NCBI RefSeq assembly: GCF_050633145.1
Contig: NZ_JBOEFY010000037.1
Location: 7,648-71,647, forward strand
DNA: 64,000 nt
Reading direction: 5' to 3'
DNA from: Kordia sp.
Lineage (GTDB): Bacteria; Bacteroidota; Bacteroidia; Flavobacteriales; Flavobacteriaceae
The notes under the pieces were generated by a model. The model was not told the DNA's origin, ran no database searches, and was given only the letters and a program-made list of their open reading frames with translations. The translations under genes and the position numbers were made by a program. Positions 4,689 through 54,769 of this stretch are shown here, in pieces; position 1 is the first letter of the stretch, and the number at the start of each line of letters is the position of its first letter.

Positions 4689-4838
4689 TTAATAACAGTA
4701 AACCCCAGGAGGACAAATTGAATGAGATGGACAGAAGCATGAATGGTTTGGATCTATACCGCCCTTTGTTTCCAAAGAATTAAAATCTGTAATCGTTTTT
4801 TTAGTAAAAGCAAGGTTTTTGATTCGTGATTTTTTCAT
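4689..4838 (-). CDS. Double-glycine-leader peptide P1 (49 aa; core IDPNHSCFCPSHSICPPGVYCY)
   Basis: MKKSRIKNLAFTKKTITDFNSLETKGG leader resembling seven other peptides in the window; 4-Cys core. Confidence 0.7.
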   Translation of the reverse strand: MKKSRIKNLAFTKKTITDFNSLETKGGIDPNHSCFCPSHSICPPGVYCY

Positions 4839-4933
4839 GATACTATATTTTTGGTTAATAATGGTAAGAAGGTATGACAACAAATTACGAACCCACTACG
4901 GGAACACCGTAATTAACATCTATAAACCAAAAA

Positions 4934-4980
4934 CGCTCGCACCGAGCTTGCCGAAGTGAACAATCCACGAGCAAAGCGAG
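4934..4980. repeat. Degenerate REP-like element
   Basis: accgagcttgccgaagtg flanked by ctcgc/gcgag; resembles flavobacterial intergenic palindromes. Confidence 0.3.
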
Positions 4981-4981
4981 T

Positions 4982-5545
4982 TCACTCCTTCCACTCCAAC
5001 GATTCAATCAACTTTCGAATATCTTTTTTAATATACATAACGGCAGGATAAATAGAATCGTAATTTGGTCGTGCATTAAAGTATAGTGAACCTGTTAAGA
5101 AGTGACTTGTACTATCTGTTACATAAAATTGTGCTTGCGAAGCGGCATTTCCTTCCACTTCATACACCATTCCGTATACGCCTTGTTCTTTATTATCATA
5201 AATTGTAGGCTCAATATTATCAGCTTTTACAGCATGTTCATACGTTAACTTTTGTACATCTTCAAGCAATTGATTTAAGTTTCCGTTTACTGGTACATAC
5301 GATAAGTGTAGTGTTCCGTTTAAAGCTGGATATTCTAAGTTAATCCAACAATTTTTCTTCGGATCAATCAGTGCAAGTTCGTTTTTATCAAACGTATACG
5401 GACAATCCGATTGCACTTTTGCATACTTTGGTGTTGGATATTGCAAGCGTAGAAAAGCATTTGGTTTTGGCAATACTTCGCCTTCACACGAACTAAAAAG
5501 AATACTTACTAATAAAAAGATGCTTGTGTATTTTATAATGTTCAT
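4982..5545 (-). CDS. gldD: Gliding motility lipoprotein GldD
   Basis: Lipobox FSSC, PKPNAFLRLQYP, GNAASQAQFYVTDST..HFLTGSLYF, PNYDSIYPA; downstream of gldE. Confidence 0.92.
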   Translation of the reverse strand: MNIIKYTSIFLLVSILFSSCEGEVLPKPNAFLRLQYPTPKYAKVQSDCPYTFDKNELALIDPKKNCWINLEYPALNGTLHLSYVPVNGNLNQLLEDVQKLTYEHAVKADNIEPTIYDNKEQGVYGMVYEVEGNAASQAQFYVTDSTSHFLTGSLYFNARPNYDSIYPAVMYIKKDIRKLIESLEWKE

Positions 5546-6849: not shown

Positions 6850-6872
6850 CTAAATGATTAATTATACTTCGA

Positions 6873-7352: not shown

Positions 7353-7394
7353 TGTTTTAAATTTATGTGTATAATCAAATGTACTAAAAAACCT

Positions 7395-20085: not shown

Positions 20086-23000
20086 CTAACGCGTAATTTT
20101 CTTCGTCAACGAACCTTTTTCTGTATCAATAATTACTAAATACATACCTGAGGCTTGTTCTCGTAAAGAAATTTTTTGATTCATATCTGTGATTGCTCCA
20201 ACCAATTGTCCTAGCATCGAATATACTTTTACACTATTGATAACCGTTCGCGTACGTTGTTTGATTTCTATTTCTTTATTGTTGTTTAAATATACCGCAA
20301 GCGCATCTTCTGCAATAACTTCTTCTTCTACACTTAAAATTGTATTGATAAATTGCAACTGAAATCTATCTGCAAAAATACCATCTGTCGTTTCAAATGT
20401 ATAAGGAGCTAATTTTAAATTGTGTGTAATGTTTAATTCTAAATCTTTCAGATACACCTCAACAACACTTGTGTTTAAGATTCCTTCTATTTGATCGATA
20501 CTAATAGTAATATCGCCCAATACAGCCGAATCATATCCTAAAGGAACAACGTCAGTATCTACAAATGCTGGTCGTCCTTGAATTCCGTATTGATGCGCAT
20601 CATCTTTTGAATAGAATCGCAAATAGTTTGAACCATTCAATCGAATTCCATCATACAATCGATCTTTTTGTAATGTAGCATCATCAAAGAAACCGATTAA
20701 CAATTGACTAAACGCGCCATCTGCATTTGTGAGATTCAACCAAATCCGATCACGTTCTTCGATAGATTCGGTTGTACTTTCAGCATTGCTTGGTCTGTAA
20801 AAATTTGTATTATCATGTGTATTGCTTCGCATGCTATTGTTAAATGTAACCGTTCCAGCAGTAATTGCTTCTATAAAGAAACCTTGCCCAGAAGCAACAA
20901 ACCCTGTTGGTGCTGTACTTCCACTTGTGGAACCTGTACCAACACCGCCAGAAGCATTATACATTGCATAATCGTCTGTACTGAAATTATATAAATCGGG
21001 CCCAGGATTTGACATGGAAGCATCATCAACATGCGTCCAGAAGTATAAGGTTCCTGTAATATTCGTATTTAATGTCACAAAATCGTCTGCGCTTATCGCT
21101 GATGGATATGGATTTCCGACAAAGTTCCAATCATCGTCCGTATCCGAAGCATCGGCACTTAAACTAATAGGCGAAGTAACAACACCATTATTTATAGCGC
21201 CACTAAATGTAACATTTTCTGTTCTTGGAAAACTTCCTGTAGTTGGTCCCATTGCAGCATACGCAACACCTGGCGTCATTGTATCTCCAGATAAAATATG
21301 CGCCCAAACATCATCATTGTCATCAAATTCATCATCGTCTAAATCTTCAAAATTAGCTGCTACATAGCTAAATGTTCTATCTAAACGCCAAGTTCCTAAT
21401 GCTGTTCCAAAAGTTGTGCTTGCAACTGGCGAAGACCAATAGGTATAATCATACTGCTCAAAAGAAGTTGTAGTTTTTTCAACATTTACAATTCCTGTTC
21501 CGTTTAGCGTGACTGTTCCTGAATCGTCTACCATCACTAGTGAACCTTGATGATTTATATTAAGAATTCCTGTATTGTTTACAGTTAAATCGTTTTCGAT
21601 ATCGATATATGTTCCTGCTGGAATTGTAGCAGTAACTCCACTATCAACTGTTAACGAACACACCGTTAAATTACCATGCGTTGTTGTATTATAGGTTCCT
21701 GCCAACGTAACTATTCTTGACCTATCGGGAGTTCCATTACTCCAAGTTGAACCATTCCAAGAAGTGACTCCTTCTTCATGTTCTCCTAGATATGGATTTG
21801 TGCCCGACACTGGACTTTCTACTTCTGCATCTGTAAATTCAACCCAATCATTAATATCCCATGTTGTAGATGGTCCAGTAGAAACACAAGAATTTCTCAC
21901 AAAGCATCTGCGATCTCCCCAAGTAGTTCCATCTCCAATAACATCTACTCTATTTGCCCAAGTATTGCTGTCAATACTTGTGGAAATTATCACCAAATCA
22001 TCTCCACTAAACAGACTTGCTGTAGATGGAAACTCAAACGTAGGATTCCCGTCATACCCAACTTCTCCTGGCGAAGCATAGGCTGGCAATACAGCTGTAT
22101 CATGCTTGTAACGGCGTACTTCTCCAATTGCCATATCTGTGGATATCAATATATTATTATTGATTGATGGTGAACCTGAATCTGAAGGATCTGCCGAAGC
22201 CGGATTGTCTGCATCTAAATTATTTAAAACTACAATATAATACGTATTGGCTGGGATTATAGCTCCGCTTACGTTTTTTACTTCAATCCATTTATCTGTA
22301 GAAGCGCCTTCATAATATTGTGTAATCATGATATCACTAGAACCAGCACCATCATTGTCTGTAATTGTTAGTGTATGCGTCGAATTTGTTCCTATAGAAG
22401 GCGTAGTTCCTCCAGAAACATTTTGTAAGTTTAAAATAACCGTTTCACTAGGTTCTGTTACCGCATCATCATTTGAGATAAAGATAGACACACATTGGTT
22501 TGTTGATGATCCTGCTGGAAATGTTAGCGTTACTGGAAACGAGATTGCAGCTGGCGATCCTGCACCATCATCGTAATCTGTTCCATTGGTTGCAGTACTT
22601 GCGCCATCAAGTGCAACTTCAACCGTTGTTGCTGTAGAACCACTAGGATTCGTAATTGCAACACATACATCGATGGTAACTCCATCTTCCGCTAGTGTTG
22701 AGGTAGTACTTACAAATTCTACCTGCGTGCTTGCACATGGAGATAGTAATGAGTTTGTTCCTGGCGATCCACCAATAGTGACTTCTTGCCAATTGGTTCC
22801 TGTATCAGAATTGTCCATTGAAACATCAACTACATGTAGAGAAGCATCATTTCCATTTCCTCCGTCGCCACTTGCATAGGTTACTACATCGGCAACTGTA
22901 GTTCCGTCTGCGGCAAATAGTGTAATTGTATCTGTTGAGTTTACTAAATTGTTTGTGCTATTTGTACTAGCATCTTCTCCTTCATCTGGCGTAAAATTAC

Positions 23001-26427: not shown

Positions 26428-27534
26428 CTATTTCTTTTCTAATGCGGCGGCTTTCTTGTTTTCTTTTGCCTGCTCGTTTCGTTCGATTGTATGCCCTGGT
26501 CTTGACCATTTTGGTTTTTCTCCTAGCGCTTGATACTGAGAATCTTCAGCTTCTACAGTTTGTGGTTGCACCTTCTTTGTAAATGGTTTTTGAGGATTTA
26601 ATCCTAACATTTCAAACATTTTCATGTCTTCATTTACATCTGGATTTGGTGTTGTTAGTAATTTATCTCCCGCAAAAATAGAGTTTGCGCCAGCAAAGAA
26701 ACACATTGCTTGTCCTTCTCTACTCATGTTGGTTCTTCCAGCAGATAAACGTACTTGTGTTTCTGGCATTACAATTCTTGTGGTAGCTACCATACGAATC
26801 ATATCCCAAATTTCTACAGGTTTTTCATTTTCTAACGGAGTTCCGTCAACAGCTACTAATGCATTGATTGGTACAGATTCTGGTTGCGGATTTAATGTTG
26901 CCAAAGCGGCTACCATTCCTGCACGATCTTCTACAGATTCTCCCATTCCTATAATTCCACCACTACAAACCGTTACATTGGTTTTACGAACATTATCAAT
27001 CGTTTCCAAACGATCTTCATATCCACGTGTTGAGATGACTTCTTTATAGTATTCTTCCGATGAGTCTAAGTTGTGATTGTAAGCGTACAACCCTGCTTCT
27101 GCTAAACGTTGTGCTTGGTTTTCTGTCACCATTCCTAGCGTACAGCAAACTTCCATATCTAGTTTATTAATGGTACGTACCATTTCTAATACTTGATCGA
27201 ATTCTGGTCCGTCTTTTACATTTCTCCATGCTGCTCCCATACATACTCGCGAGCTTCCCGAAGCTTTGGCACGTAATGCTTGTGCTTTTACATGCGAAAC
27301 GGTCATTAAATCATTTCCTTCAATATCGGTATGGTAACGTGCTGCTTGCGGACAATACCCACAATCTTCAGGACATCCTCCCGTTTTTATAGATAGTAAT
27401 GTAGACACTTGCACGGTATTTGGATCGTGATGAACTCTGTGTACCGTTGCTGCTTCATATAGCAATTCCATCATTGGTTTGTTGTAAATCGCTATGATTT
27501 CTTCTTTAGTCCAATTGTGTCGAATGTTGTTCAT
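26428..27534 (-). CDS. bioB: Biotin synthase
   Basis: SIKTGGCPEDCGYCPQ radical SAM motif, CMGAAWR, YNHNLD, PESVPIN, RLSAGR, AGANSIF. Confidence 0.97.
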   Translation of the reverse strand: MNNIRHNWTKEEIIAIYNKPMMELLYEAATVHRVHHDPNTVQVSTLLSIKTGGCPEDCGYCPQAARYHTDIEGNDLMTVSHVKAQALRAKASGSSRVCMGAAWRNVKDGPEFDQVLEMVRTINKLDMEVCCTLGMVTENQAQRLAEAGLYAYNHNLDSSEEYYKEVISTRGYEDRLETIDNVRKTNVTVCSGGIIGMGESVEDRAGMVAALATLNPQPESVPINALVAVDGTPLENEKPVEIWDMIRMVATTRIVMPETQVRLSAGRTNMSREGQAMCFFAGANSIFAGDKLLTTPNPDVNEDMKMFEMLGLNPQKPFTKKVQPQTVEAEDSQYQALGEKPKWSRPGHTIERNEQAKENKKAAALEKK

Positions 27535-29206: not shown

Positions 29207-29350
29207 TTAGAACGGAGAGCATGAAACAGCTCTGCTACAACTAGGTCTAAAAGTTCCTCTACCACCTTTTACTTGCTCTAATTCATTAATTTTAAAAACA
29301 GAGATTGCTTTTTTATTAAGGCTCAACGATTTAAGATTCTTTTTCTTCAT
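29207..29350 (-). CDS. Double-glycine-leader peptide P2 (47 aa), not in ORF track
   Basis: Manual translation MKKKNLKSLSLNKKAISVFKINELEQVKGG|RGTFRPSCSRAVSCSPF*. Confidence 0.8.
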   Translation of the reverse strand: MKKKNLKSLSLNKKAISVFKINELEQVKGGRGTFRPSCSRAVSCSPF

Positions 29351-29372
29351 TGTATTGATTGTTTAAATATAA

Positions 29373-29402
29373 CCTACTCTATTAAAGGTTTTCGGTTTTC
29401 CC
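29373..29402 (-). promoter_or_regulatory. Conserved 30-nt element upstream of P2 (shared with P4)
   Basis: 27/30 identical to 31874..31903; 22 nt from the start codon. Confidence 0.65.
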
Positions 29403-29476
29403 TTTTAAAATAAACATGCTAGCAATGCTTAAATTCTGACACTAATATCTATGATTTAGAAATTATAGAAAACAAT

Positions 29477-29503
29477 CATATCGCGAGATTAAATAAAATA
29501 GGG
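29477..29503 (-). promoter_or_regulatory. Conserved 27-nt distal element upstream of P2 (shared with P4)
   Basis: catatcgcgagattaaataaaataggg, 23/27 identical to 31979..32005 at nearly the same spacing. Confidence 0.6.
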
Positions 29504-29561: not shown

Positions 29562-29714
29562 TTACTTAGAATGAGAAGGACAGCCATCTCGAAATGTGAT
29601 GTTATCAAAATCTGTTGGAAGACTCGATCCTCCTTTTATTTCGTTCGTTTTACTTAGGCTCACCTTAGCTATAGTAGTTTTTTTTAGACTAAATTTTAGT
29701 AATTGGTTTTTCAT
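29562..29714 (-). CDS. Double-glycine-leader peptide P3 (50 aa), not in ORF track
   Basis: Manual translation MKNQLLKFSLKKTTIAKVSLSKTNEIKGG|SSLPTDFDNITFRDGCPSHSK*. Confidence 0.72.
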   Translation of the reverse strand: MKNQLLKFSLKKTTIAKVSLSKTNEIKGGSSLPTDFDNITFRDGCPSHSK

Positions 29715-29817
29715 ATTTAAAAGAGTTTTTGTTTTCACTTACTAAATATAGATGCTCACCGAAAAATAGCGAAATCATTATACCCTATTTTCTTTAAAAT
29801 AGGGTCATTTTTAGCTT

Positions 29818-31434
29818 TTAGAAAATTTCTATTTTATTCAGTTCTTTTATGTAGTAAGATGGATTCAATCCTGTTTTGTTTTTAAAATGTTTTACGAAAG
29901 AATCGTCGGTTTTATATCCTATTTCAGTTGCAATACCTTTTATAGAAAATGATCTGAATTTCTTATCGTTTTTTAATCTTTTTAAAACATATTCAATTCG
30001 TAGCTCATTGATATAATCACTAAAAGTTTTTCCTTTTTCATTATTGATTATCTGTGACAAATAAGTAACATTCGTTTTTGTTTTTTTAGCGACAGAAGTC
30101 AAGTTACAATTCGATTTCAAAAAGTATTCCTGCACTTCCAGTTTGTGTAATCGCCCAATAATTGCTTTGAGAGTAGCATCATCAATTGGAATATTTTTGA
30201 TTTGTTTTTTTGATTTTTTTTGAAATGTTACTTTTTCGTCTTCTTCTAGTGTTGAAATTTTTTCTAGAAGTGTTTTAAATGTTGCTTGATTCGTTTGCTG
30301 CTTTTTAACGTATAAGATGAGCGTTAACAAAAATGCAGAAGTAGCTATTATAATTCCCCATAACATATAATTTATGGTTTGTTTATCTTCTTTTTCTTGA
30401 TTTTGCAATGCAACGATTTGGACTAAAAATTTTTCACTGTCTTTATCATGAAATTTATTCGTTGCGATATCTTTTTTGCGACTTGCCGTATTTTTAATTT
30501 CTATAACTTTATTCAACAAAATAGTAGCTTCCTTATAGTTTCCTTTTTTCGAATAACATTGTGCCAATAGATTGTGCGTGTTTATTACATTATCTTTTTC
30601 TAAATCTTCATCTTTTATATAAGCCATTGAATTCAATAAATACTGAATTGCTTCATCATATTTTTGAAGATCATAAAAGCAAAGCGCTATTGCATAATTT
30701 GTATTTACTGTTGGGAAGAAAGGACTTGCTATGTTGTTTTTTTTTATGATTGTTTCTGCTTTAAATAGACATTCAAATGCTAGTTCCCATTTTTTTTGAT
30801 GTCTATAAAATTTTCCTTTTTTTATGTATAAGTCAACAAGTCCCTCTTGAAAGTGTAGTTTTTTAGCTAGTGCAATTCCTTTTTTTATATGTGGAAACAT
30901 TGCTTCGTAATTCCCTTGCGCCATATAAGCATCACATATAGTTGTCAATACGCGCACATGGTTTTTTTTACCTTTAAAAGTAGCTTTGTCGATTAAGGTT
31001 AATGCATACACGGAAAAATCTACAGCCTTATCTTCTTTATTGATAGAAGGTAAAAAAGCTATTAGACCAGAATATGCAATTAATTCTTGATCTATGTTTT
31101 TATTCTTTTTTGCAATAGTCAAAGCATTGTAGTAAGCTTCTATAGCTTTTTCGTTTTTCCAACTGAAGTAATATGAATTCCCAAGTTTCATGTGGGCTTT
31201 AAACAGTAAGTCTTCATCTTTTATTTCTTCTGCTATCTCGATAGCTTTTACGAAATAGGATATACTGTTTACATAGTTTTCTTTTTTTTGCAATGCATTG
31301 CCTACATCTAGATATTGTTGTACCGTTTGCCCTTTAGTTTCTTTAATAGTATGCGCCTGCTGTGGGAATGAATAATGTCCTACTAAAAAGAAAATAATTC
31401 CTATGAGAATAACTGGTGCTTTTTGTGTATTCAT
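29818..31434 (-). CDS. Membrane-spanning one-component sensor: signal peptide-TPR-TM-AraC HTH
   Basis: Hydrophobic N-terminus, TPR helices, TM YMLWGIIIATSAFLLTLILYV, AraC LTSVAKKTKTNVTYLSQIIN..FSDYINELRI..IATEIGYK. Confidence 0.88.
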   Translation of the reverse strand: MNTQKAPVILIGIIFFLVGHYSFPQQAHTIKETKGQTVQQYLDVGNALQKKENYVNSISYFVKAIEIAEEIKDEDLLFKAHMKLGNSYYFSWKNEKAIEAYYNALTIAKKNKNIDQELIAYSGLIAFLPSINKEDKAVDFSVYALTLIDKATFKGKKNHVRVLTTICDAYMAQGNYEAMFPHIKKGIALAKKLHFQEGLVDLYIKKGKFYRHQKKWELAFECLFKAETIIKKNNIASPFFPTVNTNYAIALCFYDLQKYDEAIQYLLNSMAYIKDEDLEKDNVINTHNLLAQCYSKKGNYKEATILLNKVIEIKNTASRKKDIATNKFHDKDSEKFLVQIVALQNQEKEDKQTINYMLWGIIIATSAFLLTLILYVKKQQTNQATFKTLLEKISTLEEDEKVTFQKKSKKQIKNIPIDDATLKAIIGRLHKLEVQEYFLKSNCNLTSVAKKTKTNVTYLSQIINNEKGKTFSDYINELRIEYVLKRLKNDKKFRSFSIKGIATEIGYKTDDSFVKHFKNKTGLNPSYYIKELNKIEIF

Positions 31435-31685: not shown

Positions 31686-31850
31686 TTACCCACAAGCTAT
31701 TGCACCTGTTGCGCAAAAAATATCTGTTGGTGGCTCACCATTTCTACATTCAGTAACCGTATTAAATATACTTCCTCCTGTAATTTTATTAGCATGAAAA
31801 TTAGAGATTACTTCTTTGTTGATCTGTAACTTTTTTAATGACTTTTTCAT
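31686..31850 (-). CDS. Double-glycine-leader peptide P4 (54 aa), not in ORF track
   Basis: Manual translation MKKSLKKLQINKEVISNFHANKITGG|SIFNTVTECRNGEPPTDIFCATGAIACG*. Confidence 0.8.
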   Translation of the reverse strand: MKKSLKKLQINKEVISNFHANKITGGSIFNTVTECRNGEPPTDIFCATGAIACG

Positions 31851-31873
31851 CGTTTTATGTTTTAAGAATGTTG

Positions 31874-31903
31874 CCTACTCTAATAAAGGTTTTCGGCTTC
31901 CCC
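31874..31903 (-). promoter_or_regulatory. Conserved 30-nt element upstream of P4
   Basis: cctactctaataaaggttttcggcttcccc, 23 nt from the start codon; second copy of 29373..29402. Confidence 0.65.
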
Positions 31904-31978
31904 GTATTTGAAATTGAAAACAATTGTCCTTTGATTTCGAATACGAATGTCAGTTATTAAAGCATCAAAAAAAAGGAA

Positions 31979-32005
31979 CATATCACGACTTTAAACAAAA
32001 TAGGG
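31979..32005 (-). promoter_or_regulatory. Conserved 27-nt distal element upstream of P4
   Basis: catatcacgactttaaacaaaataggg; second copy of 29477..29503. Confidence 0.6.
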
Positions 32006-32305
32006 CAAGTCATTAATTTAGAGTTTCAAGAATGGTAAAAGCGATCATTCTTAATTAAAAATAAGGTCTTTTTAAAGAAGTTAAAAATAGATTTTTACAT
32101 ACAAAAAATACAGTTAAATGACTGAAAAACAAATATTTACACCTAACAACATAAAAACAATTGCTATTTAAATAATTGCTTTAATTTAAAAAAAATAGGG
32201 TTTATCAGCACACACAAATTTAAATGATTTAGGGTTTGCTTTTTTTACTTTATATGGTACTTTTTAGATAAGAAATGAAATAGCTTTAACGAGATTAAAA
32301 AACAT

Positions 32306-35749: not shown

Positions 35750-37450
35750 ATGAATATTTCTAAAATTTCTTTGTTACTTATTTTACTTCCTTTTTGGGTT
35801 TTGGCTAATAATCAAGATTCCCTTTCTATTTTTAAAGAGAAAAACCTTTCGCAGCAACATACATATATTAAGGAACGATTAAATTCCGTAAAAAATATAG
35901 ATACTTATATTACTGCTTTTTCAGATAAAGCAAGAGGACAAAAAGACACACTTTATATTGCCAAATCGTATTATTTTAAATATCGCACCTACAGAAAAGC
36001 AAAAGCATATTCAGAAGCACATTCGGCAATTGACAAAGCCATTTTACTTGCAAAGAGCAGCAAGAAAGATTCATTATTAGGTTCTTTTTTTCATGCCAAA
36101 GGCGCTACTTTTTATATGCAGTCTAATTTTAAGGCTGCATTGGATTACTATTTAAAAGCGTATGACATTATGCGTACTAAAAGCTCAATTAGTAAATTAT
36201 TGACACTAAAATTTAATATTGCAGTAATGAAACTAAGAGTAGGAAAAACGCAAGAAGCATCTCTTCAATTTTATAAGATTATCCACTCGTACGATTCGCT
36301 ACTCAGTACAAAACCCAATTCATATGCTTTGAAAAAAAATTTTATTATAATGCTCAATAATACAGCGAAAGCCCGTACTGACTTAGCTATGTACGAGCAC
36401 GCAATTGAGTTGTATTCAAGAAGTCTTTTATTGAACGAAACTATTAATTATCTTCCTGCGAAGTGTATTGCTATTGGCGGGAAAGGAAATGTATATACCG
36501 CAGAAAAAAAATATGAGAAAGCTATTGAAAAACTAAACGAAGCATTAGCAATTTCAACTAAAGACAAAGAATCAGACTTAGTTACTCCTTATTTATTACT
36601 CGATAAAGGAAAATGCCTATTTGGATTAAAAAAATATAAAGAAGCCTTAGAAAATTTCGTAGAAATAGATCGTATCATACAAACTAAAAAACTGAATTTC
36701 CCAAACTTAGACGAAGCATATCAATTTCTTGGAAAAACGTATGTTCAATTGGGAAATCATGAAAAAGCGACGGAGGTCTATGACCAGTATATTAAACGAA
36801 AAAAGCTAAATGATGAAAAACGCTTTGAGTTGTATCAAACTATTTTTGAAGGATATGATTTGAAGAATGTAGAATATCGTGCCGAGAAAGCTGCAAAAGA
36901 GTCCAATTTATTTAAAAGCTACTTTACACAAGCAATTCTAGCAATTATACTTTTAATTATTTCTGCAATTGCCTTCTTTATGTATTATAGAAATAAGCAA
37001 AAACAAAAGTTTACAAAGTTTCATGCACTTATTAAAGAGTTAAAAACGACAGAGGTCAAGGATGTAGAAACCGTTCCTACTGGTTATGTATTATCGGACG
37101 AAAAAGCTTCTAAAATATTGAACAACTTGGAAGTTTTGGAAACGAAGTTATTTTTTCTTGATAAGAAATACAACCTTTCCACCTTGGCAAAAAAGTGTAA
37201 TACTAATTCGAGTTATTTATCTCAAGTGATTAATAAATATAAAGAGAAGACTTTTTCAGAATATATGACTGATATGCGTATTACTTATGTTTTAAATGCG
37301 TTAAAAAATGATAAAAAATTACGCTCGTACACCATTCAATCTATTGCAGAAGAAATTGGTTTTAAGAAATCAGAATCGTTTGCAAAGGCTTTTAAAAAAC
37401 GAACAGGATTTAATCCTTCTTATTATATTAAAAATCTTGACAAGCTTTAG
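35750..37450 (+). CDS. Membrane-spanning one-component sensor: signal peptide-TPR-TM-AraC HTH
   Basis: MNISKISLLLILLPFWVLA signal, TPR repeats, TM AILAIILLIISAIAFFMYY, AraC LSTLAKKCNTNSSYLSQVIN..IAEEIGFK. Confidence 0.88.
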   Translation: MNISKISLLLILLPFWVLANNQDSLSIFKEKNLSQQHTYIKERLNSVKNIDTYITAFSDKARGQKDTLYIAKSYYFKYRTYRKAKAYSEAHSAIDKAILLAKSSKKDSLLGSFFHAKGATFYMQSNFKAALDYYLKAYDIMRTKSSISKLLTLKFNIAVMKLRVGKTQEASLQFYKIIHSYDSLLSTKPNSYALKKNFIIMLNNTAKARTDLAMYEHAIELYSRSLLLNETINYLPAKCIAIGGKGNVYTAEKKYEKAIEKLNEALAISTKDKESDLVTPYLLLDKGKCLFGLKKYKEALENFVEIDRIIQTKKLNFPNLDEAYQFLGKTYVQLGNHEKATEVYDQYIKRKKLNDEKRFELYQTIFEGYDLKNVEYRAEKAAKESNLFKSYFTQAILAIILLIISAIAFFMYYRNKQKQKFTKFHALIKELKTTEVKDVETVPTGYVLSDEKASKILNNLEVLETKLFFLDKKYNLSTLAKKCNTNSSYLSQVINKYKEKTFSEYMTDMRITYVLNALKNDKKLRSYTIQSIAEEIGFKKSESFAKAFKKRTGFNPSYYIKNLDKL

Positions 37451-37459: not shown

Positions 37460-37477
37460 CTATTTTCATAAAAATCG
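37460..37477. promoter_or_regulatory. 18-bp palindromic box copy 1 (CGATTTTYATRAAAATCG)
   Basis: ctattttcataaaaatcg, 17/18 match, 70 nt before P5 start. Confidence 0.65.
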
Positions 37478-37547: not shown

Positions 37548-37739
37548 ATGAAAAGTAGATTTCACAAAAAATTAAACCTTAAAAAAGTTACCATTTCTAA
37601 ATACATTATTCTTGGCGGTTCAGCAACTCCTGATAGTGAATCGGTTCCTACACAATCTAGCGCATATCTTGAACCAACAGAATTACCTGTACTGGATGAG
37701 AATTTGACAATTAGTGGCCATCAACAAACGTGCATGTAA
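37548..37739 (+). CDS. Double-glycine-leader peptide P5 (63 aa, acidic core)
   Basis: MKSRFHKKLNLKKVTISKYIILGG|...SSAYLEPTE...TCM. Confidence 0.8.
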   Translation: MKSRFHKKLNLKKVTISKYIILGGSATPDSESVPTQSSAYLEPTELPVLDENLTISGHQQTCM

Positions 37740-37767: not shown

Positions 37768-37785
37768 CGATTTTTATAAAAATCG
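37768..37785. promoter_or_regulatory. 18-bp palindromic box copy 2
   Basis: cgatttttataaaaatcg, 18/18 match, 73 nt before P6 start. Confidence 0.7.
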
Positions 37786-38368: not shown

Positions 38369-38408
38369 CGATTTTCATGAAAATCTAATACGTTTTTCAT
38401 AAAAATAG
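38369..38408. promoter_or_regulatory. 18-bp palindromic box copies 3 and 4
   Basis: cgattttcatgaaaatct (38369..38386, 17/18) and cgtttttcataaaaatag (38391..38408, 16/18); first copy 75 nt before P7 start. Confidence 0.65.
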
Positions 38409-39077: not shown

Positions 39078-40343
39078 CTATAGTGTATCAAGCGTTTCGC
39101 GAATGGCCTGATATATTTGTTGCAATTGCACATCTGTAGTAATGTACGGCGCTAAAATGTAAATGGTATTTCCTAACGGGCGCAAACAAACACCTTTGCT
39201 CATAAACGAATTGAACAGTTTGTCACGTAAGTTTCCATAACGTTCCATTTCTATGTTTAGATCGAGTGCAAAAATTTGTCCTTGTTGTCGTGTAGACACC
39301 ACTTTTGGATGTTTTTTTATTTCTTGACCAAATGTATTGTGTGAAGCTTCAATGCGTTTTAAATTCGCCTGCATTTCGTTTGATTGCAGGAGTTCAATTC
39401 CCGCAATAGCGGCACTACACGCCACAGGATTTCCCGAATAGGTATGTCCGTGGAAGAAGCCTTTTTTCATATCATCTGCATAAAAAGCATCGTATATTTT
39501 TTGACTACAACTCGTAATTGCCATTGGCACCATTCCCGCAGATAACGCTTTGGATAAACAGATAATGTCTGGCTTGGTTTCTATAAATTCTGATGCAAAG
39601 TTTTTTCCCGTTTTTCCAAAACCAGTCATAATTTCGTCGGCAATGGTAACAACGTTGTGCTCTTGTGCAATTTTTAAGATCTCGTTGATATGCTCTGCTT
39701 TATGCATTTGCATTGCGGCAGCACCTTGCACCAAAGGTTCGTACACAAAAGCAGCTACTTTATGTTCTGTAATTAATTTGGTGAATAATGCTTTTACTGT
39801 TTCCAAATTTTCAGCATTTGGTACAGGAATTCGAGCTACATCAATAAAGAATTCTTCAAACGGTCCGTTATAGACTGAAAGTCCAGAAACTGACATTGCG
39901 CCAAAGGTATCGCCATGAAAACCATTTTCTAAAGCAATAATTCGTCCTCTTTTTTCATCTTGATTGAAATGATATTGCAGTGCCATTTTTATAGCTACAT
40001 CAATAGCAGTAGAACCATTGTCTGAAAAGAATAGCTTTTCTTGATTGCTAGGTAATATTTCAATGAGTTTTTCTGAAAGTTCTACAGCTGGTTTGTGCGT
40101 GAATCCTGTGAAAACCACATGATCTAGACTTTGCATTTGCGCATATACTTTGTCGATAATGTATGGATTGCAATGTCCGTATACACAAGTATACCAAGAC
40201 GCTATTCCGTCTATATATTCATTGCCGTTTTCATCATATAAAACAGCGTCTTTTGCCTTAGTAATCGCAATATGATTTGGATGCGATTTGTGCTGCGTTA
40301 GTGGATGCCAAAGGTGTTTTTTATCTCTTTCTTGTAAGCTCAT
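39078..40343 (-). CDS. bioA: Adenosylmethionine-8-amino-7-oxononanoate aminotransferase
   Basis: LWHPLTQH, SDNGST, FHGDTFGAMSVS, EPLVQGA, IADEIMTGFG, LSKAL, FHGHTYSGNP. Confidence 0.96.
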   Translation of the reverse strand: MSLQERDKKHLWHPLTQHKSHPNHIAITKAKDAVLYDENGNEYIDGIASWYTCVYGHCNPYIIDKVYAQMQSLDHVVFTGFTHKPAVELSEKLIEILPSNQEKLFFSDNGSTAIDVAIKMALQYHFNQDEKRGRIIALENGFHGDTFGAMSVSGLSVYNGPFEEFFIDVARIPVPNAENLETVKALFTKLITEHKVAAFVYEPLVQGAAAMQMHKAEHINEILKIAQEHNVVTIADEIMTGFGKTGKNFASEFIETKPDIICLSKALSAGMVPMAITSCSQKIYDAFYADDMKKGFFHGHTYSGNPVACSAAIAGIELLQSNEMQANLKRIEASHNTFGQEIKKHPKVVSTRQQGQIFALDLNIEMERYGNLRDKLFNSFMSKGVCLRPLGNTIYILAPYITTDVQLQQIYQAIRETLDTL

Positions 40344-49710: not shown

Positions 49711-50277
49711 ATGGCAGATAAATTAAGTAACTTTCTAAACACACTTTCCGAAGGAAATGAAGAAGATATTATTTCTCTTTATAAAGAAGTGTTTCCAAAA
49801 GTGTCGCATTTTATTGTTAGCAATAATGGTCGTATTGATGATGCCGAAGATATTTTTCAGAAAGCCTTGCTACAAATTATAGTTCGATATAGAAATGAAC
49901 CTTTTGAAATTAAAACTTCTTTTGAGAATTATTTTTTTACTGTTTGCCGAAATTTATGGAGACGCGAGTTGAATGTATCAAAATTTAAAGCAAAGCATGT
50001 TGACCATTTGGAAAATATTAGTGCTGTAGATGATGCTGCATTTTCTATTGTAGAACAAGAACGCTACGAACTTTTTTCCGAGAAATTAGCACTATTATCA
50101 GAAAATTGCAAAAGTATCCTGAAACTGTTTTTTGCTAAAACATCATACGAAAGTATTATGCAAACACTACAGTATAATTCTGAAAACGTTGTACGACAAC
50201 GAATTTTTAAATGCAAAAAACGATTGATTGAATTGATAAAGAAAGATCATAGATACGATGATTTAAAAGATATATGA
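49711..50277 (+). CDS. ECF-type RNA polymerase sigma factor
   Basis: DDAEDIFQ region 2, FENYFFTVCRNLW, region 4 LSENCKSIL.LF..I...L.YNSENVVRQRIFKCKKRL. Confidence 0.9.
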   Translation: MADKLSNFLNTLSEGNEEDIISLYKEVFPKVSHFIVSNNGRIDDAEDIFQKALLQIIVRYRNEPFEIKTSFENYFFTVCRNLWRRELNVSKFKAKHVDHLENISAVDDAAFSIVEQERYELFSEKLALLSENCKSILKLFFAKTSYESIMQTLQYNSENVVRQRIFKCKKRLIELIKKDHRYDDLKDI

Positions 50278-51074
50278 TGATGGAAGACGACATATTAATA
50301 GCACGGTTTTTAAGAAATGAACTTTCTGACGAAGAGCAAGCTGCTTTTTTGAAACGACTAGAAAGCGATGACCTTTTTAAAGAACAAGTAAAGTTAGAGC
50401 AACAATTACTAAACCTTCTTGGTGAAACATATTGGAGTTATGCTATAAACGATACTAATAAAAGAATAGAAGCGTATAAAAACATTCTTAAGTCGGACGA
50501 CACTCAAGAATTGAAAATTACTATTTCAAAAGCAATTGAAAGCTATAAGAGAAAGCAGTTAAAAGATGATAGAAAAGAAGCTTCTCCTCGTAAAGGCAAT
50601 TTTCAACTTGCTATCCGCATTGCAGCCATATTTGTTATTCTTTGCTCACTTTTTTGGTACTTCTCAAACAATAGCATAGATCATAAAGCACTTACTGATG
50701 CAGCTTGGCAAAAAAATATTGGTTTAGATTTTACAGTAAGAAACGGTTCATCAGACAGCACTAAAGCCACTTTAGCTAAAGCCTTACACCTTTATACAAA
50801 CAAAGAGTATAATCAGGCTTTAAGCACATTAAAAGCTTACAGCGCTTCTTCTAATCATTATAAAGATATTTTATTAGTCCGCGCTTTGTCTTATCACCAA
50901 TTAAACAAAACAACAATTGCGTTTCAAACATTGGATAGTTTGGCAATATATGCTCCAGATATTTCCAAATGGTACAAAGGTCTTATTCACTTAGAAAATG
51001 ACGAATTAAAGAAAGCCGCTCAGTATTTAGAAATTCCCTCAACATCGAATCAAGAAATTAAACTAAAGAAGTAA
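50274..51074 (+). CDS. Putative membrane anti-sigma factor with periplasmic TPR-like domain
   Basis: ARFLRNELSDEE..F..RL anti-sigma-like N-terminus, TM IRIAAIFVILCSLFWYF, TPR-like C-terminus; ATGA overlap with sigma gene. Confidence 0.7.
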   Translation: MMMEDDILIARFLRNELSDEEQAAFLKRLESDDLFKEQVKLEQQLLNLLGETYWSYAINDTNKRIEAYKNILKSDDTQELKITISKAIESYKRKQLKDDRKEASPRKGNFQLAIRIAAIFVILCSLFWYFSNNSIDHKALTDAAWQKNIGLDFTVRNGSSDSTKATLAKALHLYTNKEYNQALSTLKAYSASSNHYKDILLVRALSYHQLNKTTIAFQTLDSLAIYAPDISKWYKGLIHLENDELKKAAQYLEIPSTSNQEIKLKK

Positions 51075-54000
51075 ATGAGAAAAATTGTTTGTTTTATCTA
51101 CATATTCATTTTAACAACAGCATGTTTCCAGCTTCATGCACAACAGAGCAATACAAGTTTAGATACTGATTTAACTAAAGGTAAAGAATTGCTGTTTTAT
51201 GGAAAATATAAAGACGCAATTTTAGTATTTAATAAAGCACTGAAACAGGCTGAAAGCCTAGAAGATTCTATAAGCATTGCAGGCTGTTACAACGCACTTT
51301 CAAAAGCATATAACTATACTTCACAATTGAAAGAGTCTATGCTGTATGCAGAAAAAGCAATGCAATACAGTCAAGGAGAACATATTACTCAGAAAAAAGA
51401 AGAAGCAGATGCACTTTTTAACTTAGGAATTGTACAAGGGCAAAAACGTTTCTCAAAAGAGTCGCTTGAAAATCATACAGCAGCATTAGAGATTAGGCAG
51501 ACTTTTTTTAAAGATGATCTTTTTCAAATTGCCAACTCACATTTTAATGTTGGTGTTGCGTTACACCGACAAAGGCGCTTAGCGGAAGCAATGAAAAAAT
51601 TTGAGACTACTTTGACTATAGAATTAAAAGACACGCCACAACGCAGCATATTACACGCTGATATTTACGAAGCTATTGGATATATTAATTATGATCTTGG
51701 AAAGTTTGACAAAGCTCTTACTTTTTTTAAAAAGACATTGCATTTAGCACAACAAACTTACGAGGACAATCACCCTTATTTCGGAAAGGTATATAATGAA
51801 TTAGGAATGATTTATTCTATGAAGAATGAATTCAACAAAAGTTTAAAGTATTACAATAAATCATTAAGCGTAAGCATTGCGAACCATGGCATAGATATGA
51901 GTGCCGATCAAGTACGTGTACATTTTAATATTGGCACGATATACGAAAAACTTGACATACAAGAGAAAGCAATATTTCACACAAAAAAATCACTTGCGAT
52001 TGGCACTAAAATTTTAGGCGCAACACACCCGCAAATGTTTTATCCGTATAGTCAACTTGGGACTATATATGGTGACGAACGTGGAATTCCGTATGTAGAA
52101 AAAGCGCTTGCTATTCTCTTGGGTTCTGATCCTGTGAACTTTGTTATTGTTTCTTTTCAATACGAATATTTAGCTAACATTTATTCTAAGGTTGAGAATT
52201 ATCCTGAATCGCTAAAGTATATGGAAAAGACATTAGAACTTCGCTTGCAAATTTTTGGAGAACGAAATATAAATACGATTCGCAGCTACAACAATTTAGC
52301 TAAAACATATGCGCAACTCAAGGAATTTGACAAGGCGTTATTGTATTGCGAAAAATCGATCGCTGCTAACACATTAAATATTGCAAGTCAACAGAATTTG
52401 ACAGATTCTTTTACTTCTGTAAATTATGTAGATCAAAACTTTTTAGTTGAATCTGTAAAAACAAAAGCAGATATTCTCGTTCTTTTGTATCAAGAACGTA
52501 AAGAAAAAAAACACCTTCTTGAAAGCATTAAATTGTATGATGAAGCTGATGCTTTGGCAAGTTTGACACGAAAGTCAAAACAAAATCATGATGACAGAAT
52601 ACAATTTTCCGAAACGGTAAAAGCTATTTATGCAAAAAATATACAAACGAAGCTTTTGCTAAGTGAAATTGAAAATAATACTTCTTCATTAGTTGAAACT
52701 TTTTATGCTTCTGAAAAAAGTAGATCGCATACATTGCGAGAACTACTAAAACAATCCGAAGTGAAACGAACTGTAAATATTCATACAGATATTATTTCGC
52801 TTGAAAAAACAATTAATATACAACTAGCAAAATTGCAGTCAGAAATTGTAAAAGAAGCTACAGCGCTTAAAAGTGACTCCGTAAAAATATATCAGCTTGA
52901 AGGAAAAGTTTTTGATTTGACTAAACGAAAAGATTCACTTGAAAAACGTATTGAGATTGATTTCCCAAAGTATTACAAACTAAAATATGAAGACACTGTT
53001 ATTGAAATTTCAACCTTACAAGAAAAACTAAACGACAGCACAACACTTATTGAGTTTTTTAAGAATAAGAATGCAGTCTATACTTTTATCATTACAAAAA
53101 AATCGTTCCATGTAAAAAGAGTAGAGGTTGATGATTTAGATTCGAAAATTGAAGCATTAAATAAAGCAATTACTGACAAGAATACTATTCAGTTTACAAA
53201 GTATGCTTCCAACTTATACACAGAATTACTCTCACCAATAAAGTCACATTTTGTAGGCAATGAACTTATTATTATTCCTGATGAATCTTTATGGCATATA
53301 CAGTTTGATTTGCTGTTGACAGAAGCAACTAAAGCGAACCAAAAGCCTGCATATTTACTATATAACTATGCAATAAGCTATGCAAATTCAGCTAGTTTAT
53401 TATTTGATGAAACTGCAAAAAGCACAACTCATTTTTCAAATGAATGTGTTGCGTTTTCATATACAAGCAAAGACACTATTCTAAAAAATAACAATACAAT
53501 TGCTTTATCAAAATTGCGAAATACGCAGGTTGATTTACCTGGAACACGCAAAGAGATTCAGGAAATATCTAACATTTTAGAAGGCACTTATTTTTATGGC
53601 AACGCTGCAAATGAAATGAATTTTAAAAAGTATGCAGGTAATTCTAACATTCTACATTTAGCATTGCATGGTGATATTGATAATAACAACTCAAACAATT
53701 TGAAAATTTACTTTTCGGAAGGCAGCCCTAATGATGATGATAAGTTATTTGGTCATGAGTTATATTCTTTACATATTCCGGCAAATTTAGTTGTGCTAAG
53801 TGCTTGCAATACTGGAAATGGTCAGATTAACAAAGTTGAAGGAATTCAAAGTTTAGGAAATGCATTTCAATATGCAGGCGCAAAAAGTCTTTTGTTAAGT
53901 AGTTGGGAAATTTCAGATAAAACTACACCTGAAATTATGCGATATTTTTATGAACACATAAAAGGCGGAATGCCAAAACACAAAGCGCTACAACAGGCAA

Positions 54001-54197
54001 AAATTGACTTTTTACAAAATGCAGACACTTTTAATGCAGCGCCTTTTTATTGGGGAAGTTTTTATTTACTTGGAGACACAGCTCCAATTCCTTTTTCAAC
54101 GTTCAATTACACTGTTTGGATCATTGGTATTGTTAGTAGCATTGTACTTTTTTTAATTGCGAGATCGTTTCTTAGAAGAAAAAATAATACCATTTAA
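51075..54197 (+). CDS. TPR-CHAT (caspase-like) protease with signal peptide and C-terminal TM anchor
   Basis: Signal peptide, about 9 TPRs, IIIPDESL, ILHLALHG (His), LVVLSACNTG (Cys), PFYWGSF, C-terminal WIIGIVSSIVLFLIA-RRK. Confidence 0.92.
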   Translation: MRKIVCFIYIFILTTACFQLHAQQSNTSLDTDLTKGKELLFYGKYKDAILVFNKALKQAESLEDSISIAGCYNALSKAYNYTSQLKESMLYAEKAMQYSQGEHITQKKEEADALFNLGIVQGQKRFSKESLENHTAALEIRQTFFKDDLFQIANSHFNVGVALHRQRRLAEAMKKFETTLTIELKDTPQRSILHADIYEAIGYINYDLGKFDKALTFFKKTLHLAQQTYEDNHPYFGKVYNELGMIYSMKNEFNKSLKYYNKSLSVSIANHGIDMSADQVRVHFNIGTIYEKLDIQEKAIFHTKKSLAIGTKILGATHPQMFYPYSQLGTIYGDERGIPYVEKALAILLGSDPVNFVIVSFQYEYLANIYSKVENYPESLKYMEKTLELRLQIFGERNINTIRSYNNLAKTYAQLKEFDKALLYCEKSIAANTLNIASQQNLTDSFTSVNYVDQNFLVESVKTKADILVLLYQERKEKKHLLESIKLYDEADALASLTRKSKQNHDDRIQFSETVKAIYAKNIQTKLLLSEIENNTSSLVETFYASEKSRSHTLRELLKQSEVKRTVNIHTDIISLEKTINIQLAKLQSEIVKEATALKSDSVKIYQLEGKVFDLTKRKDSLEKRIEIDFPKYYKLKYEDTVIEISTLQEKLNDSTTLIEFFKNKNAVYTFIITKKSFHVKRVEVDDLDSKIEALNKAITDKNTIQFTKYASNLYTELLSPIKSHFVGNELIIIPDESLWHIQFDLLLTEATKANQKPAYLLYNYAISYANSASLLFDETAKSTTHFSNECVAFSYTSKDTILKNNNTIALSKLRNTQVDLPGTRKEIQEISNILEGTYFYGNAANEMNFKKYAGNSNILHLALHGDIDNNNSNNLKIYFSEGSPNDDDKLFGHELYSLHIPANLVVLSACNTGNGQINKVEGIQSLGNAFQYAGAKSLLLSSWEISDKTTPEIMRYFYEHIKGGMPKHKALQQAKIDFLQNADTFNAAPFYWGSFYLLGDTAPIPFSTFNYTVWIIGIVSSIVLFLIARSFLRRKNNTI

Positions 54198-54580
54198 CAT
54201 ATTAAAAATCAATATTTTATGATTTTATTTCGTTTTTATTCAAAAAAAAGTGAAAAATACTGGGTAACAAATTCCATTTTTTGGAACTATAAGTTATGAG
54301 GGATAACTGTTTTAAAATTAAAAACACATTTATTTATACCATATACTTACTTTCAAACAAGTATTCACAAATTATTTATTCTTACCATAAAGCAGGCGGT
54401 TTTTATCGTTTCAACCTTGAAGCAAACACTGCAACTCTCTCTATTTTCAACCAAAAAGATAAAAAGAGTATTCGCGCAAAGCGAATTACTACTATTCAAA
54501 AATATTTTTTCGCGAAGAATAGACACAACTGTGAGTGTCTTTAAATGTTCACTTTAAGAATTAACTATACAATTTAAATT

Positions 54581-54769
54581 ATGAAAAAAAGAGATTTAAA
54601 ATCATTAAGCCTTAACAAGAAATCAATTTCAAATTTTGATAACAGCGAATTAGTTGGAGGAACAGGTGTAACTAACATTTTTGATTGTCCTTCAGTAAGA
54701 GTGAAGCCACATTGTATTTCTTATGAGTCATTCATTACAATATGTCAGTGTCCTTCAAACGTATGCTAA
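54581..54769 (+). CDS. Double-glycine-leader peptide P8 (62 aa, 5-Cys core)
   Basis: MKKRDLKSLSLNKKSISNFDNSELVGG|TGVTNIFDCPSVRVKPHCISYESFITICQCPSNVC. Confidence 0.8.
   Translation: MKKRDLKSLSLNKKSISNFDNSELVGGTGVTNIFDCPSVRVKPHCISYESFITICQCPSNVC

Follow-up and report, generated by a model that had tools for sequence, protein, structure and literature searches.

Class I lanthipeptide precursors (LanAs) of Bacteroidetes have been described as carrying a leader of the form LxLxKx5L...GG (Walker et al. 2020, PMC7268733). Precursors scattered through a genome are known from the prochlorosins of marine picocyanobacteria, in which one class II synthetase (ProcM/SyncM) serves up to ~80 dispersed precursors (PMC9872173). 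For the genus Kordia, genome papers mention just "a lanthipeptide cluster", and the nearest remark in the literature concerns tetratricopeptide repeat (TPR) genes in two Bacteroidales clusters for peptides made by ribosomes and modified after translation (RiPPs) (PMC10352776). Here we describe eight small genes, P1 to P8, in a 64,000-nucleotide stretch (the window; contig C37, positions 7648-71647) of a 6.26-Mb, 33% G+C, 122-contig Kordia genome. Each encodes a predicted precursor peptide whose basic leader ends in a double glycine (GG).

The peptides are of two kinds: type A (P1, P2, P4, P7, and P8), Cys/Thr-rich and dispersed, and type B (P3, P5, and P6), which lie next to membrane sensors with TPR and AraC-type domains. 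The reading that we favor, with confidence a little better than even, is that P1 to P8 are dispersed class I lanthipeptide-type precursors that would be matured in trans by LanB, LanC, and a C39-peptidase ABC exporter (PCAT), the type-B products acting as ligands of the sensors.

A genome-wide family of GG-leader peptides

All eight open reading frames (ORFs) are present in the ORF listing of the window where a first-pass annotation, made from the sequence alone, had placed them (Table 1), and each has the leader that it described: a basic N terminus, an LxLxKxxI motif, and GG. Positions were counted from the ATG that opens the conserved MKK leader. The ORF lister stretches P1, P3, P6, and P7 upstream to earlier TTG, GTG, or ATG codons, but because of the conserved MKK leader and the orthologues we take the true starts to be the ATGs at 4838(-), 29711(-), 37859(+), and 38293(-). 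The cores of P1 to P8 contain 4, 2, 1, 3, 1, 1, 4, and 5 Cys, in agreement with the one to five claimed, and every core has at least one Cys and several Ser/Thr, the residues able to form (methyl)lanthionine. A Pfam search of the eight peptides returned no matches. The best match of all eight is the NCBIfam family NF038153 (lant_leader_L1a, class I lanthipeptide) and the leaders show the LxLxKx5L...GG motif, which bears out the suspected likeness to class I lanthipeptide leaders. Only P2 passes the 22-bit cut-off of that family; P4 falls just below it (Table 1), and P1, P3, and P5 to P8 score 11-18 bits. Seven of the eight exact sequences occur in the public protein collection, P1 being the one missing, and the sole named relative, within the cluster of P4, is labelled "hypothetical protein".

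A hidden Markov model (HMM) of the eight leaders, searched against all stop-to-stop frames of the genome, matched 174 ORFs in the first pass (E<1e-3) and 276 after four iterations, 266 of them with a clean M...G[GAS] leader. The iterated type-A model alone loses P3, P5, and P6, and a separate type-B model was required. The union of the two comprises 319 ORFs, all of at most 160 aa, vs 0 matches in reversed sequences at E<1e-3 for the type-A or the combined models. The genome-wide family that the leaders had led the first-pass annotation to expect is therefore present; the combined census found no members in the window beyond P1 to P8. The family consensus is MKK..LxLxKKxIS/A..L...GG, and the leader ends in GG in 251 of the 266 clean-leader members. 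A hydrophobic residue occupies position -4, as in substrates of PCATs, in 82-88% of leaders; of the two further positions expected to be hydrophobic in such substrates, -12 has one in ~60% and -7 in just 33-48%. The 266 cores are 16-80 aa long (median 38) and contain 12% Cys, 11.5% Thr, 7.4% Ser, 8% Gly, and 7.8% Pro. Odd numbers of Cys are as common as even ones, which makes purely disulfide-bonded peptides less likely.

The family carries the marks of translated genes. The base at -3 of the start codon is A in 89% of members vs 47% of ordinary genes, and at -11 to -13 A reaches 80-94% vs 54-58%. This strong A-rich context, to which the position-specific upstream signal of the family is confined, resembles the Kozak-like signals reported for Flavobacterium johnsoniae. 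A hairpin followed by a T-run occurs within 70 nt downstream of 119/266 members (45%), vs 115/787 ordinary genes (15%) and 6/266 shuffled controls (2%). Terminator hairpins had been claimed next to most of the eight peptide genes, and this proved right: P1, P3, P6, and P7 pass a strict criterion, P2 and P4 have stable hairpins, and P8 has a GC palindrome close to the end of the 70 nt examined downstream.

The claim that the cores are hypervariable needs revision: they are unrelated between paralogues, yet orthologous cores are conserved between species, in a pattern of substitutions that indicates purifying selection. In two other Kordia species the P2 core matches at every residue (100% identity, with 1-2 synonymous and 0 non-synonymous changes); the leader has 4 non-synonymous changes, and the neighboring sensor is 70-85% identical. 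Six 62-aa P8 orthologues keep all 5 Cys, with non-synonymous changes per site (pN) in the core of 0.12-0.36 vs synonymous changes (pS) of 0.45-0.83; P8-type copies are found at the syntenic position in 8 other Kordia genomes. P4 orthologues have conserved cores with 3 invariant Cys, P3 has orthologues in 5 Kordia species that retain SS[LI]PT[DE]F..TF...C, and P7 orthologues in other species have the common tail ...NNGIPNPCLSVQVCA. Orthologues of the P5/P6 type keep SSA[YF]x[ED]PTE and a C-terminal Cys-X. P1 has a syntenic orthologue in just one other Kordia genome, with 2 conservative core changes; the peptide matches the iterated leader HMM at E=7e-7.

These patterns bear on the proposal that the ORFs are untranslated and are either non-coding repeats or ORFs that arose by chance in AT-rich intergenic sequence, as their shortness and the 33% G+C of the genome might suggest. 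Against it stand the 319 matches vs 0 in reversed sequences, the strong start-codon context, the genes' own terminators, and the match to a curated family. Per site, orthologues differ more often by synonymous than by non-synonymous changes, and their Cys are invariant. By this codon-substitution pattern the proposal is effectively refuted, and we give it next to no credence.

Peptide presence or absence differs between Kordia species. At five loci of other species an extra GG peptide (core ..CNSVPRHLGGIGCH..) lies between the P3 and P2 orthologues; it is missing in this genome, where P3 and P2 are just ~210 bp apart, a difference that points to peptides being gained or lost inside a conserved module. 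The penultimate Cys of the P5/P6 type appears in the endings ..TCM, ..TCV, ..SCI, and ..ICA, and endings of this sort, ..KCV or ..QCV, are also seen in type-B peptides of other genera. Close to the C terminus, a T(K)TR..(D)S(L) motif is present in many type-B cores of this genome. Tyr sulfation of SSAYLEPTE was considered and dropped, since the Tyr is replaced by Phe in several orthologues.

The expansion of the family looks specific to Kordia, on a first-look leader count that is a loose proxy: 135-320 candidates in all 19 Kordia genomes vs 8-42 in twelve other families of the order. With other settings, the leader model gave 216 in this genome vs 3-25 among the listed genomes of 120 further Flavobacteriaceae genera.

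Sensor-linked peptides and upstream palindromes

The type-B peptides of the window follow genes for single-pass membrane sensors with a TPR array, a transmembrane (TM) helix, and an AraC-type domain (TPR-TM-AraC), which we defined by an N-terminal TPR match, a helix-turn-helix (HTH) match at the very C terminus, and a length of >450 aa. There are 46 such paralogues in the genome. By a permissive leader pattern, a same-strand GG-leader ORF begins 40-260 nt after the stop codon of 36/46 sensors vs 64/4,676 other genes, and in 34 of these 36 the distance is 77-136 nt. Type-A members also occur nearby, within 500 bp of 24/46 sensors. Overall, 27/266 peptides lie within 500 bp of a sensor vs a mean of 3.2 (maximum 8) in 300 random gene sets. 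In an all-against-all clustering of 4,722 crude gene calls, the TPR sensor cluster was the sole enriched neighbor family (28/107, p=7e-11); among its members, three TPR-histidine kinases and one TPR-LuxR-like protein likewise adjoin peptides. The suspected association with TPR-AraC genes thus holds. The companion claim for CHAT genes was rejected, as only the window's copy, of 9 paralogues, lies within 600 bp of a peptide, and the adjacency of P8 to a TPR-CHAT gene is probably incidental.

Type-B leaders follow a variant consensus, MKKxKKLxLKKxKIAKLN...GG, and the cores behind them exceed those of type A in length (median 48.5 aa) and in hydrophilic character (Thr 16.5%, Asn 8.9%, Asp 8.0%, Cys 7.8%). 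The pairing is retained among species: sensor 1 has orthologues with 70-85% identity and the same flanking peptides in 5 Kordia species, and sensor 2 has orthologues in 10 Kordia genomes.

A TM segment lies 110-260 aa before the C terminus in 45/46 sensors, Lys and Arg are more frequent after it than before it in 35/46, and a hydrophobic N-terminal segment is found in 28/46 (crude start calls). The signal-like N terminus and the TM helix are predicted to place the TPR array outside the cytoplasm. For sensor 2, an AlphaFold2 model from an alignment of 27 paralogues and orthologues (predicted local distance difference test score, pLDDT, 89; predicted TM-score, pTM, 0.70) has an 8-repeat TPR superhelix (residues 25-333), a continuous 100-residue helix that includes the TM segment (337-436), a disordered linker, and the AraC/HTH domain (451-565). 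The top matches in a Foldseek search of the PDB were the TPR domain of LGN/Pins, then OGT and designed TPRs; the RRNPP receptors Rap and NprR appear from rank 35 onward, with TM-scores of ~0.6 on the target. The LGN/Pins TPR domain wraps extended peptides, and the modeled fold of the sensor fits a peptide-binding role.

Potential operators were identified upstream of the sensor-linked peptides. The palindrome ahead of P3 in module 1 (sensor 1 and its peptides) has a near-identical counterpart on contig C1, where it precedes the type-B peptide gene in a paralogous module. Its half-site CCCTATTTT occurs 6 times in the window vs 0.73 expected, a number reached in 0/100 shuffles, with copies at similar distances ahead of P2 and P4 (Table 1). 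In module 2 (sensor 2), the 14-mer ATTTT[CT]AT[AG]AAAAT has 12 sites in the whole genome, 3 of them within this 1 kb, beside a fourth copy with one mismatch. This box is kept at the corresponding places in 10/10 orthologous Kordia loci and is absent at 2 paralogous loci.

The pattern extends beyond the window. A palindrome score of at least 8 was reached in half of 34 short-spacer modules vs 7% of shuffled controls, and the best palindromes of 26/34 modules are centered 72-93 nt ahead of the type-B ATG. Their sequences differ between modules. When 20 boxes were compared with the genome (2-3 mismatches), 17 of 33 non-self matches fell 75-120 nt upstream of the ATG of another GG peptide, for which the chance expectation, estimated from the genome-wide density of the family, is ~0.1. 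Recurring boxes include that of C12 (before peptides on C3, C39, and C4), C76 (on C23), C79 (on C35), and C27 (on C26), and in their alignments the similarity ends at the box edges. The module palindromes look like marks of sensor-specific regulons, with binding by the sensors a prediction. One module has a second copy of its palindrome on contig C14 (position 2870), ~120 nt upstream of where its own sensor gene starts, a hint of sensor autoregulation in at least that module.

Another element, the Rfam DUF805b motif, precedes P2 and P4. Of at least 49 genomic copies, most precede unrelated genes, among them genes for small proteins starting with MS and for lipoproteins, and 9 precede GG peptides. 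The consensus AAGGCGGAATCCGAAAAGCC..AATAGAGTAGGAA stands 16-31 nt (mostly 19-25) before start codons, and this fixed spacing suggests a promoter or 5' untranslated region element of a separate regulon rather than a riboswitch.

Other genes of the window touch the modules by position. The biotin genes bioB (26428-27534, minus strand) and bioA (39078-40343, minus strand) flank both sensor-peptide modules, and the modules thus seem to be located within a biotin biosynthesis region or next to it. Ahead of the TPR-CHAT gene is a pair encoding an extracytoplasmic function (ECF) sigma factor and a TPR-containing anti-sigma-like protein (the genes together at 49711-54197, plus strand). A similar pair adjoins a LanC gene on contig C58 (16474-17840, minus strand): a 270-aa protein with TPR matches and a 185-aa protein without a Pfam match, taken as a sigma factor by its size and position alone. 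Such pairs are a possible second regulatory layer. At 20086-24189 (minus strand) is a gene for a 1,367-aa protein with a C-terminal type IX secretion system (T9SS) type A sorting domain (Por_Secre_tail).

Table 1. Peptide genes, sensors, and associated elements in the window.
Feature	Positions	Strand	Remarks
P1, type-A GG-leader precursor	4689..4838	-	core IDPNHSCFCPSHSICPPGVYCY, 4 Cys; orphan adjoining gldD
P2, type-A precursor	29207..29350	-	core RGTFRPSCSRAVSCSPF; NF038153 29.9 bits
P3, type-B (sensor-linked) precursor	29562..29711	-	core SSLPTDFDNITFRDGCPSHSK; 104 nt downstream of sensor 1 (TPR-AraC-1); type-B HMM E=1.8e-5
P4, type-A precursor	31686..31850	-	252 nt upstream of sensor 1, same strand; NF038153 21.0 bits
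P5, type-B precursor	37548..37739	+	starts 98 nt downstream of sensor 2; SSAYLEPTE motif, penultimate Cys
P6, type-B tandem paralogue of P5	37859..38041	+	74% identity over 96 nt of upstream sequence plus leader
P7, type-A precursor, convergent on P6	38099..38293	-	C-terminal motif IPNPCLSV.PC
P8, type-A precursor, 5 Cys	54581..54769	+	between TPR-CHAT gene and TonB-dependent receptor gene; leader HMM 48.9 bits
Sensor 1, TPR-TM-AraC (538 aa)	29818..31434	-	N-terminal hydrophobic signal-like segment, TPR array, one TM helix, C-terminal HTH_18; Pfam matches
Sensor 2, TPR-TM-AraC (566 aa)	35750..37450	+	Pfam matches; AlphaFold2 model (see text)
Bidirectional terminator hairpin, common to P6 and P7	38055..38097	.	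19-nt arms, 89% complementary; -18.2 kcal/mol; T-runs on both strands
Module-1 palindrome ACCCTATTTT(ctt/aaa)AAAATAGGGT	29782..29805	.	center ~80 nt (79.5-82.5) upstream of P3 ATG
Half-site CCCTATTTT of module-1 box	29495..29503	-	~149 nt upstream of P2 ATG
Half-site CCCTATTTT	31997..32005	-	~151 nt upstream of P4 ATG
Half-site CCCTATTTT, further copy	32192..32200
Module-2 box ATTTTCATAAAAATCG	37462..37477	.	center 78.5 nt upstream of P5 ATG
Module-2 box, second copy	37770..37785	.	center 81.5 nt upstream of P6 ATG
Module-2 box, third copy	38369..38384	.	center 83.5 nt upstream of P7 ATG
Module-2 box, fourth copy	38391..38406	.	center 105.5 nt upstream of P7 ATG
Rfam DUF805b motif	29371..29405	-	44.6 bits (gathering score 35.6); 21 nt upstream of P2 start
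Rfam DUF805b motif	31872..31906	-	40.0 bits; 22 nt upstream of P4 start

Maturation in trans and competing readings

Profile searches found no LanB, LanC, or C39/PCAT gene in the window, as the first-pass annotation had stated. The sole radical SAM gene is the biotin synthase gene bioB, and it was rejected as a RiPP maturase. A further likeness that had been proposed, to precursors matured by radical SAM enzymes, was not sustained: TIGR04149 is matched by P2 alone, at 13.6 bits vs a cut-off of 25, and no maturase is nearby.

We identified candidate trans-acting enzymes on contig C58, as had been envisaged for machinery elsewhere in the genome. The cluster contains, in order, a PCAT, HlyD, two Cys-rich GG peptides, a type-B peptide, a TPR-AraC sensor, Lant_dehydr_C, Lant_dehydr_N, LanC, and the anti-sigma/sigma pair. 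The single LanB of the genome lies here, as separate genes for its N- and C-terminal parts; of the two LanC-like genes and the two full-length PCATs in the genome, the cluster holds one each. Precursors beside LanB/LanC, absent from the window, are found here, where the sole LanB has its own two LanA genes. Across the genus, exactly one LanB was identified in 18/19 Kordia genomes (16/16 of high quality), each at ~500 bits and with a PCAT ~8-10 kb away; PCATs are present in 19/19, often in several copies. Predicted maturation in trans by the single LanB/LanC, with leader removal by a PCAT, is well supported but indirect.

Two further loci encode C39-type proteins. The second PCAT, on contig C49 (25673-32445), is accompanied by an HlyD partner, a 970-aa protein, and two NHLP/Nif11-like precursors of 116-123 aa (MESTKKQQIANEFL...); this locus is a separate RiPP system with protein-like leaders. 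On contig C23 (3440-4009), next to a metal ABC transporter, is a 189-aa C39 peptidase that stands alone and has a hydrophobic N-terminal segment. Similar ORFs of 185-212 aa occur in at least 9 other Kordia genomes, and the protein is possibly a periplasmic GG-leader protease independent of PCATs.

Genomes outside Kordia connect sensors and enzymes. Among 120 other Flavobacteriaceae genera, a TPR-AraC homologue was found in 26 and LanB in 9, and in six of the latter the best TPR-AraC homologue lies within ~2 kb of LanB. A GG-leader ORF follows on the same strand 80-130 nt downstream at 8/28 non-Kordia loci, all 8 in LanB-positive genomes. A phylum-wide sample added five more GG-peptide loci (three downstream, two divergent), all in LanB-positive genomes and three of them with the sensor 1-3 kb from LanB; the controls of this sample were five genomes, two without LanB. 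Thus, 13/13 non-Kordia loci with a GG-peptide ORF beside TPR-AraC come from LanB-positive genomes, and no such ORF was found in LanB-lacking genomes. Altogether, 9 Flavobacteriales genomes other than those of Kordia have TPR-AraC at 0.5-3 kb from LanB. Outside Kordia the type-B cores resemble P3, P5, and P6 in being acidic and in often containing 0-1 Cys. This distribution leads us to see in the sensor and its type-B peptide an ancestral accessory of the split-LanB cluster of Flavobacteriales, one that became amplified in Kordia. There the regulator-precursor module would have been amplified ~46-fold and the precursors ~300-fold, the enzymes remaining single-copy.

Under the favored reading, the precursors would be dehydrated and cyclized in trans by the single LanB/LanC, then cut after GG and exported by a PCAT. 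Each TPR-AraC dimer would bind its own palindrome via its cytoplasmic HTH and drive its own small peptide-gene regulon. The mature type-B peptide would be the cognate ligand of the sensor's periplasmic TPR superhelix, closing an autoinduction loop, and the type-A peptides would be the regulated output, serving as antimicrobial or other effectors. Such a loop, which we infer together with the ligand role, would be analogous to Firmicutes GG pheromones and RRNPP pairs. For the role as signals that the first-pass annotation had proposed, the points in favor are indirect: the stereotyped place of the peptide gene behind the sensor gene, the module-specific palindromes that stand ~80 nt ahead of peptide start codons and return at distant peptide genes, and the predicted 8-repeat TPR superhelix, a fold of a kind known to bind extended peptides. 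A more far-reaching version would be a peptide communication network with no described counterpart in Bacteroidota. In it, ~46 orthogonal single-pass TPR-AraC receptors would each sense their own exported GG (lanthi)peptide in the periplasm and, through a private palindrome, switch on both that peptide and a private set of lanthipeptide effectors dispersed in the genome, all matured by one LanB/LanC/PCAT. This version is tentative, and we think it somewhat unlikely.

Several observations weigh against the favored reading. Seven of the eight leaders score under the curated NF038153 cut-off. Because P3, P5, and P6 contain just one Cys each, and several type-B peptides of other genera lack Cys altogether, lanthionine rings are not a general requirement. 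On the regulatory side, a strong palindrome near -80 was found in just ~7% of type-A genes vs 2% of ordinary genes, and an upstream k-mer search found no promoter or operator motif common to the whole family (enrichment of at most ~3.8-fold, AT-rich words alone); most orphan peptides are therefore tied to no sensor yet. Nor was the box of the C58 sensor found upstream of the lanB/lanC, PCAT, or LanA genes. TPR folds resemble each other generally, which makes the Foldseek likeness weak evidence. The PCAT/HlyD/outer-membrane route would export to the outside, and a 2-6 kDa peptide would have to return from there to a periplasmic TPR. Finally, a Mantel test across 34 paralogous modules showed no co-variation of TPR-domain and core similarity (r=0.03, p=0.33); saturation of divergence at ~27% identity is the probable reason.

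The low leader scores and the single Cys of P3, P5, and P6 are also what would be expected if the peptides were not lanthipeptides at all. They could be unmodified or disulfide-bonded secreted peptides, like class II bacteriocins or pheromones, that use a PCAT or the stand-alone C39 peptidase alone, their likeness to LanA leaders being a consequence of the common exporter. The presence of PCATs in all Kordia genomes, often in several copies, and of a secreted stand-alone C39 peptidase is consistent with this. The composition of the cores (12% Cys, 19% Ser+Thr), in which odd Cys counts are as frequent as even ones, speaks against it, as do the conservation of a single-copy LanB across the genus and the restriction of non-Kordia GG-peptide TPR-AraC loci to LanB-positive genomes. 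We regard this alternative as improbable.

The uncorrelated divergence of TPR domains and cores, in turn, is a point for a prochlorosin-like library, in which one promiscuous LanB/LanC makes ~320 lanthipeptide products with antimicrobial or other effector roles, the sensors are ordinary regulators answering other cues, and the type-B peptides are merely the first regulated product. One conserved enzyme set facing hundreds of diverse Cys/Thr-rich cores agrees with such a library. TPR-AraC genes are, moreover, a regular component of Flavobacteriales lanthipeptide clusters, and many type-B cores are long, contain several Cys, and look product-like. Left unexplained are a Cys-poorer, more acidic class at a fixed distance behind 34/46 sensors and the retention of the sensor pairing in other genera with cores of 0-1 Cys. 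The cores are also conserved between species rather than diversifying. We consider the library unlikely, though far from negligible.

Significance and comparison with known systems

If the favored reading is true, this would be the largest one-enzyme, many-substrates lanthipeptide system so far, with no earlier example in class I or in Bacteroidota. It would imply a highly substrate-tolerant LanB/LanC and ~300 conserved, unexplored peptide scaffolds in an algicidal marine genus. We know of no established peptide pheromone system in Bacteroidota, and a literature search found none; it likewise turned up no paper on the expansion in Kordia, on pairs of TPR-AraC sensors and GG peptides, or on the sensor-operator modules. 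The modules are a directly testable candidate for peptide-based cell-cell or self signaling in this phylum. The sensor-peptide-operator triplets are compact and apparently orthogonal, and may provide a toolbox of independent inducible switches. Genes of this kind are overlooked or labelled "hypothetical" in annotation and are invisible to standard cluster-based genome mining.

The peptides resemble Bacteroidota class I lanthipeptides (pinensin-type, with split LanB and PCAT) in leader family, GG motif, and Cys/Ser/Thr-rich cores, and the genome has a matching split-LanB/LanC/PCAT/HlyD cluster with two adjacent LanA genes. They differ in that the window peptides are on a different contig from the enzymes, number ~320 per genome rather than 1-5 per cluster, mostly score below the leader cut-off, and include a subtype paired with membrane sensors. 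With the prochlorosins they share a marine host, one conserved enzyme set, and scattered GG precursors with a conserved leader and unrelated cores. However, the Kordia enzymes are class I LanB/LanC instead of LanM, and the leader, short and basic, is unlike the Nif11/NHLP-like leader of the prochlorosins. The Kordia family is also about four times the size, its cores are conserved between species, and it has dedicated sensor-operator modules.

Comparable signaling arrangements occur in Firmicutes, where GG-leader pheromones (ComC/ComAB/ComDE, BlpC, plantaricin A) control class II bacteriocin regulons. As in those systems, the peptide gene lies beside the sensor and the same operator precedes pheromone and effector genes; PCAT export and cleavage are likewise predicted for Kordia. 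The Kordia sensor, however, is a one-component TPR-TM-AraC protein rather than a histidine kinase and response regulator, the operators are palindromes rather than direct repeats, the host is Gram-negative, and ligand binding is putative.

The RRNPP systems (Rap-Phr, NprR-NprX, PlcR-PapR, Rgg-SHP) similarly combine a TPR receptor and HTH with a peptide gene directly downstream, in many orthogonal pairs. The likeness is one of fold and logic: RRNPP receptors have an RNPP-type C-terminal domain and an N-terminal HTH or phosphatase domain, whereas a Pfam search gave no RNPP_C match in the two window sensors, and a weak one in the CHAT protein only. RRNPP receptors are cytoplasmic and sense re-imported peptides of 5-10 aa, in contrast to the Kordia sensors, with their predicted periplasmic TPR and AraC-type HTH, and to the Kordia peptides of 20-70 aa with GG leaders. 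The sensors also resemble ToxR, CadC, and TcpP, single-pass membrane proteins that likewise join a periplasmic sensor to a cytoplasmic DNA-binding domain, but the Kordia proteins are of opposite polarity (N-out/C-in), end in an AraC-type HTH instead of an OmpR-type winged helix, and have a TPR sensor.

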